DNA of 64,000 bases from Escherichia phage LHE83. Positions 2,458 to 47,048 of the stretch are shown in pieces. The translations under genes and the position numbers were made by a program. The stretch lies in sequence record OQ561750. One strand, given 5' to 3'. Under the pieces are notes generated by a model that was not told where the DNA came from, did no database searches, and was given only the letters and a program-made list of their open reading frames with translations. The stretch's first letter is position 1. The number at the start of each line of letters is the position of its first letter.

Positions 2458-2750
2458 TGACTGATGAAGAACTTTTTGAGTTCTGTTATTTCTCACGTAA
2501 GGTTCGAAGAGAGGACCTTACTGCAAATTTCGAGTATGCTTATTTCTATCCATTAGAATATGTATTCATGACAGGGCCCTTTAAGGGCTCTCGTTTTAGA
2601 TGTCATGCCCCAAGCATCCGATTAATGAAACAGGTTCCTTACTTCACCCTCGAGTTCATCTCAGGGCCTTGTAAGGGTATTATAACTCGTAGTCTCTTGA
2701 CATATGACCAAGAGATTCATATGATTTCTGACTGGAAAAAATATGTCTAA
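2454..2750 (+). CDS. hypothetical protein
   Basis: ATGA overlap with upstream stop; track start 2406 lies inside the upstream gene. Confidence 0.45.
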   Translation: MMTDEELFEFCYFSRKVRREDLTANFEYAYFYPLEYVFMTGPFKGSRFRCHAPSIRLMKQVPYFTLEFISGPCKGIITRSLLTYDQEIHMISDWKKYV

Positions 2751-2961
2751 ATTGTCAATTGAAGGCTCTGATGAAGCTCTGAAGATGTTTGTTGATTGGT
2801 TCCACGAACAGGGCGAACAAGGCTTTTTGGAATGTTGGAATGGTGGACAATGGAACGGTAAAGAAACCGTTTATCCGAGCACATATATCTCTGTTCGTGG
2901 CGGACCCAACGGCCTTCGTTTAGTGGAATACGATATCGCAACTGGTGAGGAAGTAAAATGA
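2743..2961 (+). CDS. hypothetical protein
   Basis: ORF track; ATG overlapping the preceding stop. Confidence 0.5.
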   Translation: MSKLSIEGSDEALKMFVDWFHEQGEQGFLECWNGGQWNGKETVYPSTYISVRGGPNGLRLVEYDIATGEEVK

Positions 2962-3236
2962 TTGAAGATATCAAGGGTTACAAACCACATACCGACGATA
3001 AAATCGGTAAAGTGAATGCTATTAAAGATGCCGAAATTCGGTTAGGGCTGATGTTTAAAGCTCTAGAAGAAGAACATGTTACCTATTATATGAACTTAGA
3101 TACCGAAGAGGTTTCTGAACAAGAACTAGACCAGGCTCATGAACGCATTACCCAGATTCGTAATGCAATTGACCGTCTTAAAGAAGCTAGTATGTGGGCT
3201 TGTCGCTCTGTGTTCCAACCAGAAGAAAAGTACTAA
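2958..3236 (+). CDS. hypothetical small helical protein (vs-region)
   Basis: ORF track; ATGA overlap with upstream stop. Confidence 0.5.
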   Translation: MIEDIKGYKPHTDDKIGKVNAIKDAEIRLGLMFKALEEEHVTYYMNLDTEEVSEQELDQAHERITQIRNAIDRLKEASMWACRSVFQPEEKY

Positions 3237-3240
3237 AGCA

Positions 3241-3270
3241 GTTTACATCTCCTGTAGGTATGATACTATA
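3241..3270 (+). promoter_or_regulatory. early promoter cassette upstream of regB
   Basis: GTTTAC then 17 nt then TGATACTAT then CCTATCAAC; inverted repeat CTCCTGTAG/CTACAGGAG flanks the -10 and includes the Shine-Dalgarno. Confidence 0.55.
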
Positions 3271-3297
3271 AACCTATCAACTACAGGAGATTACAAA

Positions 3298-3756
3298 ATG
3301 TCAGAAATTAATTCAGAAGTATTCATCCGCCGCAATAAATTACGTCGTCAGTTCGAAACCGAATTCCGCGAACTGAATGCGTCCATCAAAAAAGCCGCCA
3401 TTAAGAGCGGAGTCCCAGCCTTCTTTATTAAGTACTCTAATCACTTGTTGGACCGTGCTATCCAACGTGAAATCGACGAAAAATACGTTTTTGCTTTATT
3501 CAAGCAACTCCATAACCATGTTAAAGAAATTCATGAATTTTTAATCCAGGAACCTCTGCCTGATGTAGAAGCCGAAATCATTCCTGGTAAAGTGTATCGC
3601 CCATTGCGTCTCGAAATTACCGATAAAACCTTATGGCTAGGTATGACTGTAGATCGTAAACATCCTGATAAAGGATACTCGTTAAAATGTCGTATGGCAT
3701 TTGTTAACTCTAAACGTTTAGAAGGTAAAACCAGCACGAAAGTAATCTATCTTTAA
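3298..3756 (+). CDS. regB: RegB site-specific endoribonuclease
   Basis: Internal ATG after the promoter cassette; MSEINSEVFIRRNKLRR...LLDRAIQREIDE resembles T4 RegB; track start 3139 runs through the promoter. Confidence 0.85.
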   Translation: MSEINSEVFIRRNKLRRQFETEFRELNASIKKAAIKSGVPAFFIKYSNHLLDRAIQREIDEKYVFALFKQLHNHVKEIHEFLIQEPLPDVEAEIIPGKVYRPLRLEITDKTLWLGMTVDRKHPDKGYSLKCRMAFVNSKRLEGKTSTKVIYL

Positions 3757-3768
3757 TAATGAGGTCTC

Positions 3769-4308
3769 ATGAAAAAAGTATTAGCCACTTTACTATTGAC
3801 AGTTAGTATGTCTGCCCATAGCGTAGAGCCTACTTTCAGTAATGAACAACTCGATAATTTACATTATGCGTATGCTTTCGGTGAACAATACCAAAAGTCG
3901 GGAAAGTTCAAAGAAACCCCTAATCAAAAAGGATTAGGATATATCATGGCCGGATTACTATGGCAGGAATCATCCGCCGGAATTAATCAAGGTTTAAATA
4001 AAGATAAGCACCATGCTTATGGCATGTTCCAAAATTACTTGCCTACGTTAAGAAGTCGTGTTCAACAGGTAGGTTGGAAGATGTCTGACAAAGAAATAAT
4101 TCGTATGGTCCAAAAACGACAGAACAGTGCCTCTTGGGCCTACATTGAACTGTCTTATTGGATTGATGTTCACAAAGGTGACCTGAGAAAAGCGATTGCT
4201 TCTTATAATGCGGGCTGGAACGCCAAAGCAGGCAGTAAATATGCTTCTGAAGTTCTAGAAAAGGCCAATTACCTAAAATCTAAAAAGATGTTTGAGGCGG
4301 TGTATTAA
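3769..4308 (+). CDS. secreted lytic transglycosylase-like protein
   Basis: N-terminal signal peptide; motifs LWQESSAG, AYGMFQ and SYNAGWN resemble the SLT-domain catalytic Glu-Ser and AYNAG motifs. Confidence 0.55.
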   Translation: MKKVLATLLLTVSMSAHSVEPTFSNEQLDNLHYAYAFGEQYQKSGKFKETPNQKGLGYIMAGLLWQESSAGINQGLNKDKHHAYGMFQNYLPTLRSRVQQVGWKMSDKEIIRMVQKRQNSASWAYIELSYWIDVHKGDLRKAIASYNAGWNAKAGSKYASEVLEKANYLKSKKMFEAVY

Positions 4309-4665
4309 ATGATTAAGCAGATGACTATAGCGCTTATGTTGATTGCTCCGGGAGTATTAGCGTCACAAGTTGATGATAGTAATAATTCAATTGTCGAGTA
4401 TGCTACCCGTACAGCAAAAGATTATTGTCATCCGAGTAATACTGAATGCATTATCGAATTCAGTTCAAAAATCACAGCTGCTTTTAAAGATGGCCAGAAC
4501 GACGTAGAGCATCGCCGAATGAAAGAGAAAACTCTTTCTAAAAGATACGAGCAACGTCTAAACGTTACTGAATGTATTCCATCTGATAAAAAGTACAAAG
4601 AAATGTGCGCGTCTATGGTAGACAGACTCGTTGATTCATACAACCGAGGATTAAACTCTAAATGA
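4309..4665 (+). CDS. secreted or periplasmic hypothetical protein
   Basis: ORF track; hydrophobic N-terminus; several Cys. Confidence 0.5.
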   Translation: MIKQMTIALMLIAPGVLASQVDDSNNSIVEYATRTAKDYCHPSNTECIIEFSSKITAAFKDGQNDVEHRRMKEKTLSKRYEQRLNVTECIPSDKKYKEMCASMVDRLVDSYNRGLNSK

Positions 4666-5129
4666 TTATTGATTATATTAAGGGCGATATCGTCGCCCTG
4701 TTTCTTCAAGGTAATAATGTTGCACACGGGTGCAACTGTTTCCACACAATGGGTTCAGGTGTAGCTGGGCAATTGGCTAAGGCTTATCCGCCTATTCTCG
4801 CTATCGATAAAACTACTTATTTAGGCAATTTGGCAAAACTTGGCACGTTTACTCAAGCTACAGGTAATAATGGCCAAATTTGCTATAATTTATATACCCA
4901 ATACGAACCAGGCCCTAATCTTGATTATGGTGCTTTAGTAAACTGTATGATAGAATTAAACCGTACCGCAAAAGGTCTTTTGTTTAAACCAAGAATTTAT
5001 ATTCCTCGCATTGGTTGTGGTATTGCTGGTGGTGATTGGGACAAGGTTTACCAATTGATTAATTTGTTTACTCCTGATATTAATTTAGTGGTGGTAGATT
5101 ATGAAAGCCCATTACCCGCATCCGTTTGA
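4662..5129 (+). CDS. macrodomain-like protein (putative ADP-ribose binding or hydrolase)
   Basis: GDIV...VAHGCNC...MGSGVAGQLAKA...IGCGIAGG pattern resembles macro-domain glycine-rich loops; ATGA overlap with upstream. Confidence 0.45.
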   Translation: MIIDYIKGDIVALFLQGNNVAHGCNCFHTMGSGVAGQLAKAYPPILAIDKTTYLGNLAKLGTFTQATGNNGQICYNLYTQYEPGPNLDYGALVNCMIELNRTAKGLLFKPRIYIPRIGCGIAGGDWDKVYQLINLFTPDINLVVVDYESPLPASV

Positions 5130-5313
5130 CCCTAAAAACAAAGCGGAAATTATTCGACGCTGGACCGAAACACGAGTAACTAAATGCCCTATAAAAAGTC
5201 AACACAACACCGATAAATGGTATATTGGTGAATATGTTGAATATACTTTTATAGATAAAAATAAACGTAAACAGCATGTAGAAGAATATTGCTTAAAGGT
5301 GCAATGGTTATGA
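5101..5313 (+). CDS. hypothetical protein
   Basis: ORF track; overlaps the 3' end of the previous gene. Confidence 0.4.
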   Translation: MKAHYPHPFDPKNKAEIIRRWTETRVTKCPIKSQHNTDKWYIGEYVEYTFIDKNKRKQHVEEYCLKVQWL

Positions 5314-5483
5314 GTCTGAGTAAAGAACAGAAAGATAAATTGTTTGAGCTTATCCATGAGCTTATGGAACTCAACATAGAATGTGAATTTGATAACTCTC
5401 TGGATTGGGATTGGAGAGGTGGTGAAGAGGATGAGTTTTCTAAAAAGGAAAATGAATTAATTGCTTATGTAAATAGTCTTTAA
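5310..5483 (+). CDS. hypothetical acidic protein
   Basis: ATGA overlap start chosen instead of track start 5289. Confidence 0.4.
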   Translation: MSLSKEQKDKLFELIHELMELNIECEFDNSLDWDWRGGEEDEFSKKENELIAYVNSL

Positions 5484-5492
5484 GAAGGTAAT

Positions 5493-6065
5493 ATGGCTCA
5501 ACTTTATTTTCATTATGCGGCGATGAATTCCGGGAAAACCGCTTCATTGCTAACGGCAGCTCATAACTACAAAGAACGTGGTATGGGCGTACTCCTTTTA
5601 AAGCCTGCGATAGACAATAGAGAATCAAGCCATAGCATTTCGTCTCGTATAGGGATTAGTCAAGAGGCTAATGCCGTGACTCCGGATATGGACCTATACG
5701 AGTTCTATCGTTGGGCTGAATCTCAAAAAGATATCCACTGCGTATTTGTGGATGAAGCACAGTTCTTAGAACCTGCACAGATAAAACAACTGGCAAAGAT
5801 AGTAGACAATTATAATGTTCCGGTTATGTGCTATGGGCTAAGAACTGATTTTCAGGGTAAACTGTTTCCTGGCTCTGCTGAATTACTCGCTACGGCAGAT
5901 AAACTCGTTGAGTACAAAGGTGTGTGCCATTGCGGCCGTAAAGCTACTATGACGGCTCGTATCCAAGATGGTATCGCAATTAAGGACGGAGCCCAAGTTT
6001 CTATAGGTGGCAACGATTCTTACGTGTCATTGTGCAGGAAGCACTGGATAGAAATAACGAGTTGA
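5493..6065 (+). CDS. tk: thymidine kinase
   Basis: AAMNSGKT P-loop, VFVDEAQF, Zn-ribbon CHCG...LCRKHW; near-identical to T4 Tk from memory. Confidence 0.9.
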   Translation: MAQLYFHYAAMNSGKTASLLTAAHNYKERGMGVLLLKPAIDNRESSHSISSRIGISQEANAVTPDMDLYEFYRWAESQKDIHCVFVDEAQFLEPAQIKQLAKIVDNYNVPVMCYGLRTDFQGKLFPGSAELLATADKLVEYKGVCHCGRKATMTARIQDGIAIKDGAQVSIGGNDSYVSLCRKHWIEITS

Positions 6066-6072
6066 GGGTACT

Positions 6073-6351
6073 ATGGACCTAAATTCAAAGATTTTAATTC
6101 TAGCGTTCGCTGTGGCTATTTCTTATATTGTTCTTTCGCCTATCATGGATGATGTGGCTTACAAAAGAGAGATAGAGGTTGTAGCAGCGACGTATAATGC
6201 TAATAATAAAGAGTGTCCTAATAAAAATGGGATGGATTTAATTAAAGCGCATTATATGCTTTCCATTACCTCGCCTATACAGAGGAATTGGGTTGAATAT
6301 AATTTTAACGACGTGTTCTATTCTTATTGTCGTAAGCTTAAAAAGCTATAA
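6073..6351 (+). CDS. hypothetical membrane protein
   Basis: ORF track; N-terminal transmembrane segment. Confidence 0.5.
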   Translation: MDLNSKILILAFAVAISYIVLSPIMDDVAYKREIEVVAATYNANNKECPNKNGMDLIKAHYMLSITSPIQRNWVEYNFNDVFYSYCRKLKKL

Positions 6352-6354
6352 ATA
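6347..6354 (+). promoter_or_regulatory. late-promoter-like TATAAATA
   Basis: Exact match to the T4 late -10 consensus, about 90 nt upstream of rI. Confidence 0.35.
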
Positions 6355-6443
6355 ATAATACTAACCGTAGAGCTTTAGCTTTTGGTAATCGCTATCGGTT
6401 AAGGCCGAAAGGCAAATAGTATAAAACAACAAAGGACTTTTGT

Positions 6444-6737
6444 ATGGATATTTTCCGTACAGCGGCTTGTATCCTTATGGCGGGATGTTTAAGCCCTACA
6501 GTTTCACTAGCAAATGACACCAACGATAAATTGATGGATGCATTTGCTAGTAGTGCGATGCCTGTTTATGCGCAAATGAGTAGACCTAGCATAAAGGCCT
6601 CCGAAGACTATTGGGCCTACCTTAATGCTTCTTGGAAGGTATCAAGTTGTCAGACTATAGAAGCGTGCTCAATTGAAGGTCGTGCCATCGGAGAGCGTTA
6701 TGCAAAACTAATGAAGGTGGAAGATGAAGTTCAATGA
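6444..6737 (+). CDS. rI: lysis inhibition regulator rI-like
   Basis: 97 aa; signal-anchor N-terminus; Cys pattern and size as T4 RI; sits between tk and the nrdC-region genes. Confidence 0.6.
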   Translation: MDIFRTAACILMAGCLSPTVSLANDTNDKLMDAFASSAMPVYAQMSRPSIKASEDYWAYLNASWKVSSCQTIEACSIEGRAIGERYAKLMKVEDEVQ

Positions 6738-40657: not shown

Positions 40658-40951
40658 ATGAAAAAGTTATTAATCGCAGCAATTCTTGCCGTAGCATCAT
40701 GTGGTACAGCTCCAGTTACTGCTGGACTTGATAAAGACCTTTGTGAATGGTCTATGACTGCAGACCAAGAATCGGTCGAACATCAGATTTATGCTGATAT
40801 CATGAACATCACTAAACGTGACCGCCCTGATATGGTTAAAGAAGTGTCAGACCAATTGGCTTCAAGCGGCGTTATGCAGTATAACTATGTTCTGTATTGT
40901 GACGCTAATTTCGATAACAAAAACATCGTTAAAGAGGTGACAGGTGAATAA
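40658..40951 (+). CDS. sp: Spackle (periplasmic superinfection-exclusion protein)
   Basis: 97 aa; signal peptide; DKDLCEWSMTADQ...GVMQYNYVLYCD near-identical to T4 Sp from memory. Confidence 0.75.
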   Translation: MKKLLIAAILAVASCGTAPVTAGLDKDLCEWSMTADQESVEHQIYADIMNITKRDRPDMVKEVSDQLASSGVMQYNYVLYCDANFDNKNIVKEVTGE

Positions 40952-41384
40952 GATTAACAGAAATTTGGTTATCAAAAAACTTCGTTGTAAAAATCCAAAT
41001 GCACAAGCATACAGGATGTTTTGGAGCGACGACCACCAATACCTAGGTTATTTTCTTGTTGATAGCGATGATCGAATTACAATGGCTCATAAACTTCTTA
41101 ACAGAGAATTAAACCATTGGCAAGAACTTATTGCGGTGAGGTCTAAATTATTTTCATGCAATACAATGCACCAATTGGTTTATTTTTTCGCCGATGGTAT
41201 TCCTGACAAGGTTGAGTTTGATGGGTTTGAATTTAAAGATATCCACCCGGACAACGAATTGAACGACCGCGTTAATATAGATATCCCTAGCAAGTATATC
41301 AAAAACAGTCTGTTGAAAATTCTGGAAGCTCCGGTTTATTCAATTGACGACCAGATTTTTAATGCCTTTATGAATCGAGGTTAA
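40944..41384 (+). CDS. hypothetical protein
   Basis: ORF track (GTG start); start uncertain. Confidence 0.45.
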   Translation: MNKINRNLVIKKLRCKNPNAQAYRMFWSDDHQYLGYFLVDSDDRITMAHKLLNRELNHWQELIAVRSKLFSCNTMHQLVYFFADGIPDKVEFDGFEFKDIHPDNELNDRVNIDIPSKYIKNSLLKILEAPVYSIDDQIFNAFMNRG

Positions 41385-45809: not shown

Positions 45810-46379
45810 ATGAACATCGAACAAAAATGTCTTTATCAAGACCGAATCAATTCCAAATTCTCAAAACACGAACAGAATCTTTTAGAAAAATGTCTAGATG
45901 CTAAAAAGGACCCTAACTTCCATTACGACCTTGATAAGCTAGTTCGTAAGCATGTTACTTCAGCGGTTCCGGTAGAGCTTTATCGTGGGATTACCGCTAT
46001 GGAACTTGAGCAACTTGAAGTTCTTTCTGTTGGGTGCCAGTGGTCTCCTGGCCGGGTTACTTCTTTTAGTACACAATACTCACAGGCTCGTCAGTTCGCA
46101 GGGGCATGGGAATATGGAACCAGAACCATTTTAAGTCTCAGGAATGCACCGTTCATTTTCGACTACTATAACCATGCTATCGACCTTGTTCTTGCAGGGA
46201 ATGTAGATGAGCTTGAAATAGATGAAACCCGTATAGACCTCTACGATATGGTCGAAACTGAATGTGAGTTCATGGTCTCCAGCCAATCACGATTTGAGAT
46301 TGTGGAAATCGAAACTATCAAAAGGGACCCGTACGAAATCGAGTACAAAACAATTCATTTAAAAATGTTGGATTTTTAG
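45810..46379 (+). CDS. ModA/ModB-family ADP-ribosyltransferase
   Basis: R-S-E signature: YRG, SFS(T), acidic catalytic segment; syntenic with T4 modA/modB. Confidence 0.6.
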   Translation: MNIEQKCLYQDRINSKFSKHEQNLLEKCLDAKKDPNFHYDLDKLVRKHVTSAVPVELYRGITAMELEQLEVLSVGCQWSPGRVTSFSTQYSQARQFAGAWEYGTRTILSLRNAPFIFDYYNHAIDLVLAGNVDELEIDETRIDLYDMVETECEFMVSSQSRFEIVEIETIKRDPYEIEYKTIHLKMLDF

Positions 46380-46433: not shown

Positions 46434-47048
46434 ATGTTATATCCAAGCCATAAATTAGCAGAATTTATCAACAACGCCAAATGCGATGATTTCCGTGAGA
46501 ATACTCAGATAGAAATTGATGAGGTGTATTCTGATTTAGAACAGAGCACGCTCTGGCAGTGTATGGAAAATAAACCAGATACTATCCAGGAAACTCTGAA
46601 CAAAATTATTCGTAAGAACCTGACTTCTGCAGTGCCTGATAAGTTGTATCGCGGAATTTCTAAGAAGACTATGGCATATCTTGAATCTACGATGTGCGTA
46701 GGTGCTGTAATTGAATTCGACCGTGTGATGAGCTTCTCAAAAGATTTCAATGTAGCTCGTAACTTCGCATCTTATAACTTCTACGGCACATTTAATATCT
46801 TTTGTATTAATGATGCACCATTTGTGTACAATTATCAGGAAGAAATCTTTAAAATGTTATGTGCCGCGCCCCCTGAAGAGTTCCCAGGTGCATTTCCTGA
46901 ATCTACCCGTGTAGCAAACTTACAATTAATCAATGATGAAGATGAGATGATGTTCCCTGCGGGAACTACGCTGAGCGTAGACTCTATTGAGAGAAATCCT
47001 AAATGGAATAATTACACCATTTGGAATCTTTCCGTTCTTTCTTACTGA
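46434..47048 (+). CDS. ModA/ModB-family ADP-ribosyltransferase (paralog)
   Basis: YRG, SFSK and EDEMMF (E-x-E-like) motifs; paralog of 45810. Confidence 0.6.
   Translation: MLYPSHKLAEFINNAKCDDFRENTQIEIDEVYSDLEQSTLWQCMENKPDTIQETLNKIIRKNLTSAVPDKLYRGISKKTMAYLESTMCVGAVIEFDRVMSFSKDFNVARNFASYNFYGTFNIFCINDAPFVYNYQEEIFKMLCAAPPEEFPGAFPESTRVANLQLINDEDEMMFPAGTTLSVDSIERNPKWNNYTIWNLSVLSY

Follow-up and report, generated by a model that had tools for sequence, protein, structure and literature searches.

We examined a stretch of 64,000 nucleotides from Escherichia phage LHE83 (OQ561750), called the window below, and in it a gene of 155 codons between regB and tk. Judged by sequence and by structure prediction, its product consists of a single macrodomain that stands alone and falls in the ALC1/TARG1/DarG class, and sequence and gene order identify the gene as the syntenic ortholog of T4 tk.4, now also called adfM. 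We argue that the protein is likely to be an orphan, purely enzymatic eraser. It would hydrolyze thymidine-linked ADP-ribose on single-stranded phage DNA in a way that depends on a glutamine and does without a lysine. It must be noted that the gene and its role against the DarTG2 defence system are already known, since the T4 gene has carried an A1pp/macro annotation for years and the DarTG2 role was reported in 2025. The only increments offered here are the glutamine-type active site, the non-orthology of two proteins that are both named AdfM, and a conserved hairpin at the 5' end of the gene.

Several searches place the protein among the macrodomains. The Pfam Macro family (PF01661) matches it with 32.8 bits against a gathering cutoff of 22 (E=7.4e-8), and the match covers model positions 2-117 of 118. 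A single-sequence search of solved structures finds BT1257 (7.5e-9) and the DarG of Mycobacterium tuberculosis (Mtb DarG, 6.6e-5), and also SCO6735, Poa1p and TARG1. With a profile of 61 family sequences these become BT1257 7.6e-20, TARG1 1.4e-18, SCO6735 1.1e-16, Poa1p 1.9e-14 and DarG 2e-11, and the coronavirus macrodomains stand at 1e-3. The structure-library entry 2afc presumably also represents SCO6735 (5E3B), because BT1257 is 54% identical to SCO6735 (PMC9411070) and the library is clustered at 40%. PADLOC gives a single match, to DarG, and this covers the macrodomain part only (E=3e-6). The AlphaFold2 model of the protein has a pLDDT of 94.2 and a pTM of 0.88 and shows the three-layer alpha/beta/alpha macro fold. 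Its best Foldseek matches in the Protein Data Bank (PDB) are TARG1, Poa1p and Mtb DarG, with E between 3e-10 and 3e-8. The Pfam, sequence, profile, AlphaFold2 and Foldseek results together point to the ALC1-like/TARG1 class, where the nearest structure and sequence relatives are found, and not to the MacroD, viral or PARG classes. A first-pass annotation, made from the letters of the sequence, had called this open reading frame (ORF) macrodomain-like and had named PF01661 as the check. The Pfam score above the gathering cutoff, the AlphaFold2 model and the Foldseek matches bear it out. Both of its peptides are in the ORF (GDIVALF...QLAKA at residues 8-41, IGCGIAGG at residues 117-124), and the ORF list and the annotation agree with its placement of the gene in the regB-to-tk interval.

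Orthology to T4 tk.4 rests on both similarity and position. The two proteins have 155 residues each and are 53% identical over their full length (E=1e-62). The gene order in the window is regB-vs.1-vs-tk.4-tk.3-tk.2-tk, which matches phage Bp7, and T4 has the order regB-vs.1-vs-tk.4-tk.3-tk.2-tk.1-tk with one additional small gene. The Bp7 annotation names the gene tk.4, 'similar to bacteriophage T4 Tk.4', and the T4 annotation has long carried the phrase 'contains A1pp phosphatase motif'. This is the part that the first-pass annotation missed: it had the fold right and did not see that the gene is T4 tk.4. Over 2.1 kb the window shares 98.7% identity with Escherichia phages vB_EcoM-E33 and QL01, and it shares 97% with Bp7 (genus Dhakavirus, Tevenvirinae); by sequence it is a Dhakavirus. 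The GC content of tk.4 is 38.5%, which we count as equal to the 39.3% of the window.

By alignment, a glutamine takes the place of the catalytic lysine in the active site. A profile alignment to TARG1 puts its 'LITK' (Lys84) over 'NLYTQ', which ends in Q80, and its Asp125 over A122. A multiple alignment puts the 'FPTK' of both DarG proteins and of PhiKZ gp104 over 'LYTQ', again with the lysine over Q80. Residue counts that we had taken from motif-selected loci were partly circular, so they were set aside and redone on the 149 best representatives of a pattern-free HMMER search. Glutamine occupies the Q80 position in 147 of these 149 and lysine in none. N25 is kept in all 149 and H22 in 142. 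N25 also aligns with N23 of the PhiKZ protein, and a comparison of the motifs IAHVCN (SCO6735) and VAHGCN (window) equates H22, G23 and N25 with H24, V25 and N27 of SCO6735. BT1257 was misplaced around the glutamine in a MAFFT alignment of seven references, and the hidden Markov model (HMM) alignment was used for it instead. The glycine loop IGCGIAGG, which the first-pass annotation likened to an ADP-ribose-binding loop, aligns with 'IGCGLDRL' of TARG1 and 'IGCGLAGG' of BT1257. G118 and G120 are invariant in the alignment of the 61 family sequences, and the residues predicted to form the ADP-ribose-binding loops (N25 and G118-G124) are conserved. The segment after the glutamine is the short QYEPGPNLDY, which has no lysine, where BT1257 has 6 extra residues. 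About half of the family, 79 of the 148 representatives that could be scored, has this short mobile loop.

It is worth considering what is published on the relatives. Transposon sequencing (HIDEN-SEQ) of a T4 mutant library on a DarTG2 host found tk.4 as the single T4 gene depleted, a clean tk.4 knockout makes T4 sensitive to DarTG2, and the gene is dispensable on plain, defence-free K-12 (bioRxiv 10.1101/2025.11.20.689424). The authors of that preprint renamed the gene adfM (anti-DarT factor Macrodomain) and remarked on its similarity to Mtb DarG. Enzymatic removal of ADP-ribose from DNA is their proposal and was not assayed. T4 without adfA and adfN remains resistant to DarTG2, from which a further factor was predicted (PMC11825919). 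The first-pass annotation had suggested that a phage could use a macrodomain against defences that work by ADP-ribosylating their targets. That idea is right in kind, and the depletion and the sensitive knockout mean it was already demonstrated for the T4 ortholog. Two further ideas in it have no support: action on signalling molecules derived from ADP-ribose, and erasure of the marks of the phage's own Alt and Mod enzymes. PhiKZ gp104, a chimallivirus macrodomain that was independently named AdfM, clears a TNTC oligonucleotide in vitro of the ADP-ribose added by DarT2 and also rescues cells from this toxin, and its N23A mutant has reduced activity (Cell Rep 2026, PMC13309987). SCO6735 cleaves thymidine-linked ADP-ribose (dT-ADPr) with Gln85 in place of the lysine. 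Q85A and Q85E abolish its activity on dT-ADPr DNA and on protein substrates, its His24-Val25-x-Asn27 loop positions the catalytic water, and its mobile loop with Lys89/Lys93, about 5 residues longer than in DarG or TARG1, is linked by the authors to efficient DNA binding (PMC9411070).

We argue that the most likely job of the LHE83 gene is counter-defence. tk.4 would be expressed from the early-gene cluster regB-vs.1-vs-tk.4. The DarT2 toxin of a host would ADP-ribosylate thymidines in single-stranded phage DNA and block replication. The Tk.4 ortholog would bind the ADP-ribose and hydrolyze the thymidine-ribose bond, which would restore normal DNA. In this scheme the H22-G23-C24-N25 loop would hold the distal ribose and the catalytic water. 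Q80 would replace the catalytic lysine of DarG and TARG1 and position the substrate, probably with lysine-independent chemistry as in SCO6735. By analogy we infer the same activity and mechanism for the 53%-identical LHE83 allele as for its relatives.

Several points weigh against this scheme. The experiments concern relatives only, and not the LHE83 protein or any Dhakavirus, and the T4 protein that was tested is only 53% identical. For T4 there is genetic evidence only, from a preprint in which no Tk.4 enzyme assay or catalytic mutant is reported (10.1101/2025.11.20.689424). The extended lysine-bearing mobile loop is absent, so the DNA activity of SCO6735 is not simply transferable. SCO6735 also inhibits DarT by binding and acts on protein substrates (PMC9411070), which leaves the mode of action and the substrate range less settled. 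Finally, a family found in 2732 phage records and in bacteria that have no DarT2 nearby hints at a role broader than anti-DarTG2.

The distribution of the family bears on this last point. The 2732 records with homologs are drawn from 50,697 phage records and include T4-like genera, Vequintavirus, Ackermannviridae, and Pseudomonas and Vibrio phages. The pattern-free HMMER search covered 1.84 billion cluster representatives. It gives 5373 relatives at E<=1e-3, each standing for a 50%-identity cluster, and 1563 at E<=1e-10. None of the 80 closest bacterial relatives exceeds 43% identity. They are stand-alone genes of about 150 amino acids in Rhodobacterales, Verrucomicrobia, Planctomycetota, Desulfobacterota, Bacteroidota and other taxa. 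A toxin-antitoxin origin of the family was probed with a single DarT2 query, and no DarT2 homolog was found within 4 kb on either side in the 80 bacterial loci or within 1.5 kb on either side in 79 viral loci. Phage T5, a DarTG2-sensitive control, has no tk.4 homolog in nucleotides 1-86000 of its 121750 by BLAST and HMM searches, which is consistent with an anti-DarTG2 role of tk.4.

The phage homologs carry several labels ('phosphatase', 'macro domain protein', 'Poa1p-like', 'hypothetical'). This gives the result some value for annotation, since thousands of phage records say 'phosphatase' or 'hypothetical protein' for what is most likely a DNA ADP-ribosylglycohydrolase. It also illustrates that reading a sequence alone can find a genuine counter-defence gene. 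Several homologs have late annotated start codons that remove about 30 N-terminal residues (PE37, CDS 488-880; B9-1, CDS 491-859, where CDS is the coding sequence), and in PE37 this includes the HGCN loop. The genome-reduced T4 clone T4_583L retains a tk.4 remnant of 34 codons only (CDS 1780-1881).

A broader reading of the family deserves a tentative statement. A third and distinct active-site type among the ALC1-like macrodomains may be represented by the T-even Tk.4 family, with the glutamine of SCO6735 and the short loop of DarG and TARG1, recruited independently of the lysine-type PhiKZ AdfM. Its substrates could be wider than thymidine-ADP-ribose DNA and include, for example, protein- or RNA-linked ADP-ribose. 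The protein would then be a general eraser, directed at several ADP-ribosyltransferase defences, and not a dedicated anti-DarTG2 factor. We think this possible, with the odds clearly leaning the other way.

More improbable is the reading that the protein is a broad eraser that serves mainly against other ADP-ribosylating defences or toxins, with DarTG2 as one of several targets. The others might be RNA-ADP-ribosylating systems such as CmdTAC, toxins that act on proteins, or variants of DarT. The 2732 records across many genera and the 5373 clusters speak for it, as do the 80 bacterial orphans. SCO6735 has a wide substrate range (PMC9411070), and it is a speculation of the AdfN authors that RNA ADP-ribosylation is what some erasers act on (PMC11825919). 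However, the T4 screen, in which each defence system was run separately, names tk.4 for DarTG2 only, and this is the one target with data.

We give still less credence to a mainly non-catalytic action, in which the protein would bind and block DarT2 or sequester ADP-ribose-containing molecules. It is true that SCO6735 Q85A, though catalytically dead, inhibits DarT in vitro, and more so than DarG K80A or TARG1 K84A (PMC9411070). Other anti-DarT factors also work by binding, namely AdfA (PMC11825919) and AdfB. But the 155-residue protein has no counterpart of the C-terminal DarT-binding domain of DarG, and the strong conservation of all catalytic-site residues argues for enzymatic activity.

It is just as hard to believe that the protein reverses or tunes the ADP-ribosylation (or RNAylation) of host proteins by the phage's own Alt, ModA and ModB. 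The first-pass annotation rightly noted that the phage encodes ADP-ribosyltransferases. Two adjacent ModA/ModB-like paralogs at 45810-46379 and 46434-47048 (+) match PHROG 832, 'RNA polymerase ADP-ribosylase' (E 1.5e-37 and 3.6e-44), and are 32-35% identical to T4 ModA/ModB. SCO6735 and TARG1 also act on protein substrates (PMC9411070). However, the two genes lie about 41 kb from tk.4 and are not co-located with it, and tk.4 is unneeded on defence-free K-12. The bond does not fit either. Alt and Mod enzymes modify arginine, whereas macrodomains of the ALC1/TARG1 class act on Glu/Asp esters and nucleic-acid linkages, and we know of no action of this class on arginine N-glycosides.

An ADP-ribose-1''-phosphate phosphatase like Poa1p, clearing the by-product of 2'-phosphotransferase reactions in tRNA metabolism, is what the 'phosphatase' and 'A1pp motif' labels suggest, and we consider it highly implausible: the labels were inherited by homology, the sole known phenotype of the ortholog is DarTG2 sensitivity while tk.4 is dispensable on plain K-12, the similarity to Poa1p is weaker than to BT1257, TARG1 or SCO6735, and to our knowledge no phage or host pathway makes this substrate during infection. 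A literature search for the active-site determinants of Poa1p gave nothing usable.

The 5' end of tk.4 carries a second conserved element. A terminator scan of 2500-6500 finds an 8-bp GC-rich hairpin at 4681-4699 (+), in codons 7-13, with the sequence AGGGCGAT-ATC-GTCGCCCT. It is followed by GUUUCUUC, and the U-rich tail runs to about 4707. T4 has the identical stem at about 4354-4372 on the minus strand of the T4 locus sequence, and four stem variants of the hairpin occur among Dhakavirus, Tequatrovirus, Krischvirus and Vequintavirus. Over 88 loci from phage records and viral contigs, stem pairing has a bimodal distribution: all 8 positions are paired in 17 loci, 7 in one, and 1-6 in the rest. 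Two of the base pairs differ on both sides of the stem. One change, from G-C to A-U, is synonymous on the Lys side (Lys AAG to AAA with Leu CUN to UUR). Another, from C-G to A-U, is found in a Vequintavirus and combines Gly GGC to GGA with a change from Ala GCC to Ser UCC. Across the phage genera compared, the sequences thus have a hairpin kept by compensatory changes. Given the amino acids and the codon usage of the genome, full pairing with wobble is not rare (about 19% expected), but a stem with at least 5 G-C pairs is expected in only about 0.5%, because GGC, GUC and GCC, all of them minor codons, must then occur together. The 91 nucleotides around the tk.4 start fold no better than shuffled sequence (z = -1.2), and the local hairpin dominates the centroid structure. 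An Rfam scan of 3700-6100 at E<=1 gave as its sole match a sub-threshold snoRNA, which we attribute to chance. Between vs and tk.4 the hairpin could act as a terminator that is sensitive to translation, or it could serve RNA processing or stability.

The gene sits in a tightly packed same-strand cluster, as its overlaps with vs and tk.3 indicate (Table 1). The ATGA overlap with vs implies co-transcription of the two genes and probably translational coupling, and T4 likewise has the ribosome-binding site and the ATGA before tk.4. We list vs as the upstream gene of the same transcription unit; it is context only and stands outside the macrodomain function. It is also the most strongly depleted T4 gene in minimal medium (10.1101/2025.11.20.689424), so two conditionally needed genes neighbour each other here. 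A sigma-70 promoter scan of 2500-6500 shows no excess of promoter-like sites (11 against 12.3 +/- 3.2 in shuffles). Within tk.4, at 4931-4956 (+), there is a middle-promoter-like sequence directed toward tk.3-tk (MotA box TGCTTTA, 13 nt, TAGAAT), and T4 has CGCTTTA-13 nt-TAGAAT in the same place. The T4 middle-promoter-like pattern is enriched over the whole window, with 15 matches against 5.1 +/- 2.6 in shuffles. In T2, RIL-seq found chimeras of the host small RNA (sRNA) ArcZ with tk.4 mRNA, and the Tk.4 protein level is unchanged in a delta-arcZ host (2026 preprint 10.64898/2026.06.19.733364). The same preprint mislabels T2 tk.4 as a 'putative thymidine kinase'. Elsewhere in the window, a 146-residue ORF at 40944-41384 (+) (PHROG 8539, function unassigned) occupies the position of T4 gene 61.2 (adfA, an anti-DarT1 factor). 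Only its last 14 residues are shared with T4 gp61.2, so the anti-DarT1 repertoire may differ from that of T4.

Table 1. Coordinates of tk.4, its predicted active-site elements and its neighbours in the window
Feature	Position	Strand	Basis and remarks
tk.4 / adfM ortholog	4662..5129	+	ATG-to-TGA ORF, 155 codons; stand-alone macrodomain protein
H22-G23-C24-N25, first ADP-ribose-binding/catalytic loop (predicted)	4725..4736	+	coordinates checked; alignment
Q80, at the catalytic-lysine position of TARG1 (K84) and DarG (K80)	4899..4901	+	profile and multiple alignments
I117-G124 (IGCGIAGG), glycine-rich phosphate-binding loop (predicted)	5010..5033	+	coordinates checked; alignment
Ribosome-binding site GAGGA	4646-4650	+	sequence inspection; 11 nt 5' of the tk.4 start
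ATGA, vs stop / tk.4 start overlap	4662-4665	+	sequence inspection
Overlap of tk.4 3' end and tk.3 start, 29 nt	5101..5129	+	ORF list; identical overlap in Bp7 annotation
regB	3298-3756		ORF list/annotation
vs.1	3769-4308		ORF list/annotation
vs (valyl-tRNA synthetase modifier)	4309..4665	+	PHROG 1256, E=3e-34; Bp7 and T4 annotation
tk.3	5101-5313	+	PHROG 2008 match; ORF list
tk	5493-6065		ORF list/annotation; tk.2 also lies in the regB-tk interval

The closest known system is T4 Tk.4 itself. It shares the length of 155 residues, the neighbours (vs upstream, tk.3 and tk downstream), the HGCN and LYTQ motifs and the 5' hairpin. It differs in genus (Tequatrovirus, against Dhakavirus here) and in the glycine loop, which is IGAGIGKGNW in T4 and IGCGIAGGDW here. 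T4 gp30.3, or AdfN, follows the same strategy as an orphan antitoxin-like eraser in T-even phages, but it has the unrelated NADAR fold, removes guanine-linked ADP-ribose and counters DarTG1, not DarTG2 (PMC11825919). AdfB of ICP1 was considered as a relative and rejected: the available portion of its description presents a DarT-binding antitoxin mimic with low DarG identity, and nothing in that portion marks it as a macrodomain.

The cellular members of the class share the fold and differ in the active site. Human TARG1 (OARD1) has a common predicted fold with the window protein (Foldseek E 2.8e-10, TM 0.76-0.85) and the same layout of the ADP-ribose-binding loops, but its catalytic dyad of Lys84 and Asp125 is replaced by Q80 and A122. 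DarG, from M. tuberculosis and T. aquaticus, differs in more respects. It has a catalytic lysine (Lys80 in T. aquaticus) where the window protein has Q80, its full length is about 330-340 residues, and it is encoded beside darT, whereas the neighbours here are vs and tk.3. Of the 329 positions of the PADLOC DarG model the window protein covers 3-142 only, and with the NCBIfam equivalog it reaches 20.4 bits, where the cutoff is 250. With the lysine, the C-terminal domain and the darT neighbour all absent, the sequence is that of a protein other than DarG. SCO6735 and BT1257 have in common with it the glutamine at the lysine position and the His and Asn of the first loop (Q80, H22 and N25 here; Q85, H24 and N27 in SCO6735). 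They are chromosomal and not phage-borne, are about 26-29% identical to it, and have a mobile loop 5-6 residues longer, with Lys89/Lys93 in SCO6735, where the window protein has a short one. By sequence, the window protein has the active-site arrangement of SCO6735 but is not a full SCO6735-type protein.

PhiKZ gp104 is likewise a stand-alone phage macrodomain against DarTG2, with activity shown for the PhiKZ protein, and it shares the loop asparagine (N23 there, N25 here). However, it has only about 20% identity with the window protein and retains the lysine of 'FPTK' where the glutamine stands here. It also matches Mtb DarG at E=9e-25, compared with 6.6e-5 for the window protein. Because PhiKZ gp104 is DarG-like and only about 20% identical, we argue that the T4-type and the PhiKZ proteins are separate recruitments and not orthologs. 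The name AdfM has been given independently to both, to the glutamine-type T4 Tk.4 and to the lysine-type, DarG-like gp104. Two non-orthologous proteins with probably different chemistry thus share one name, and this is relevant to the design of catalytic mutants and to predicting which phages overcome DarTG2.

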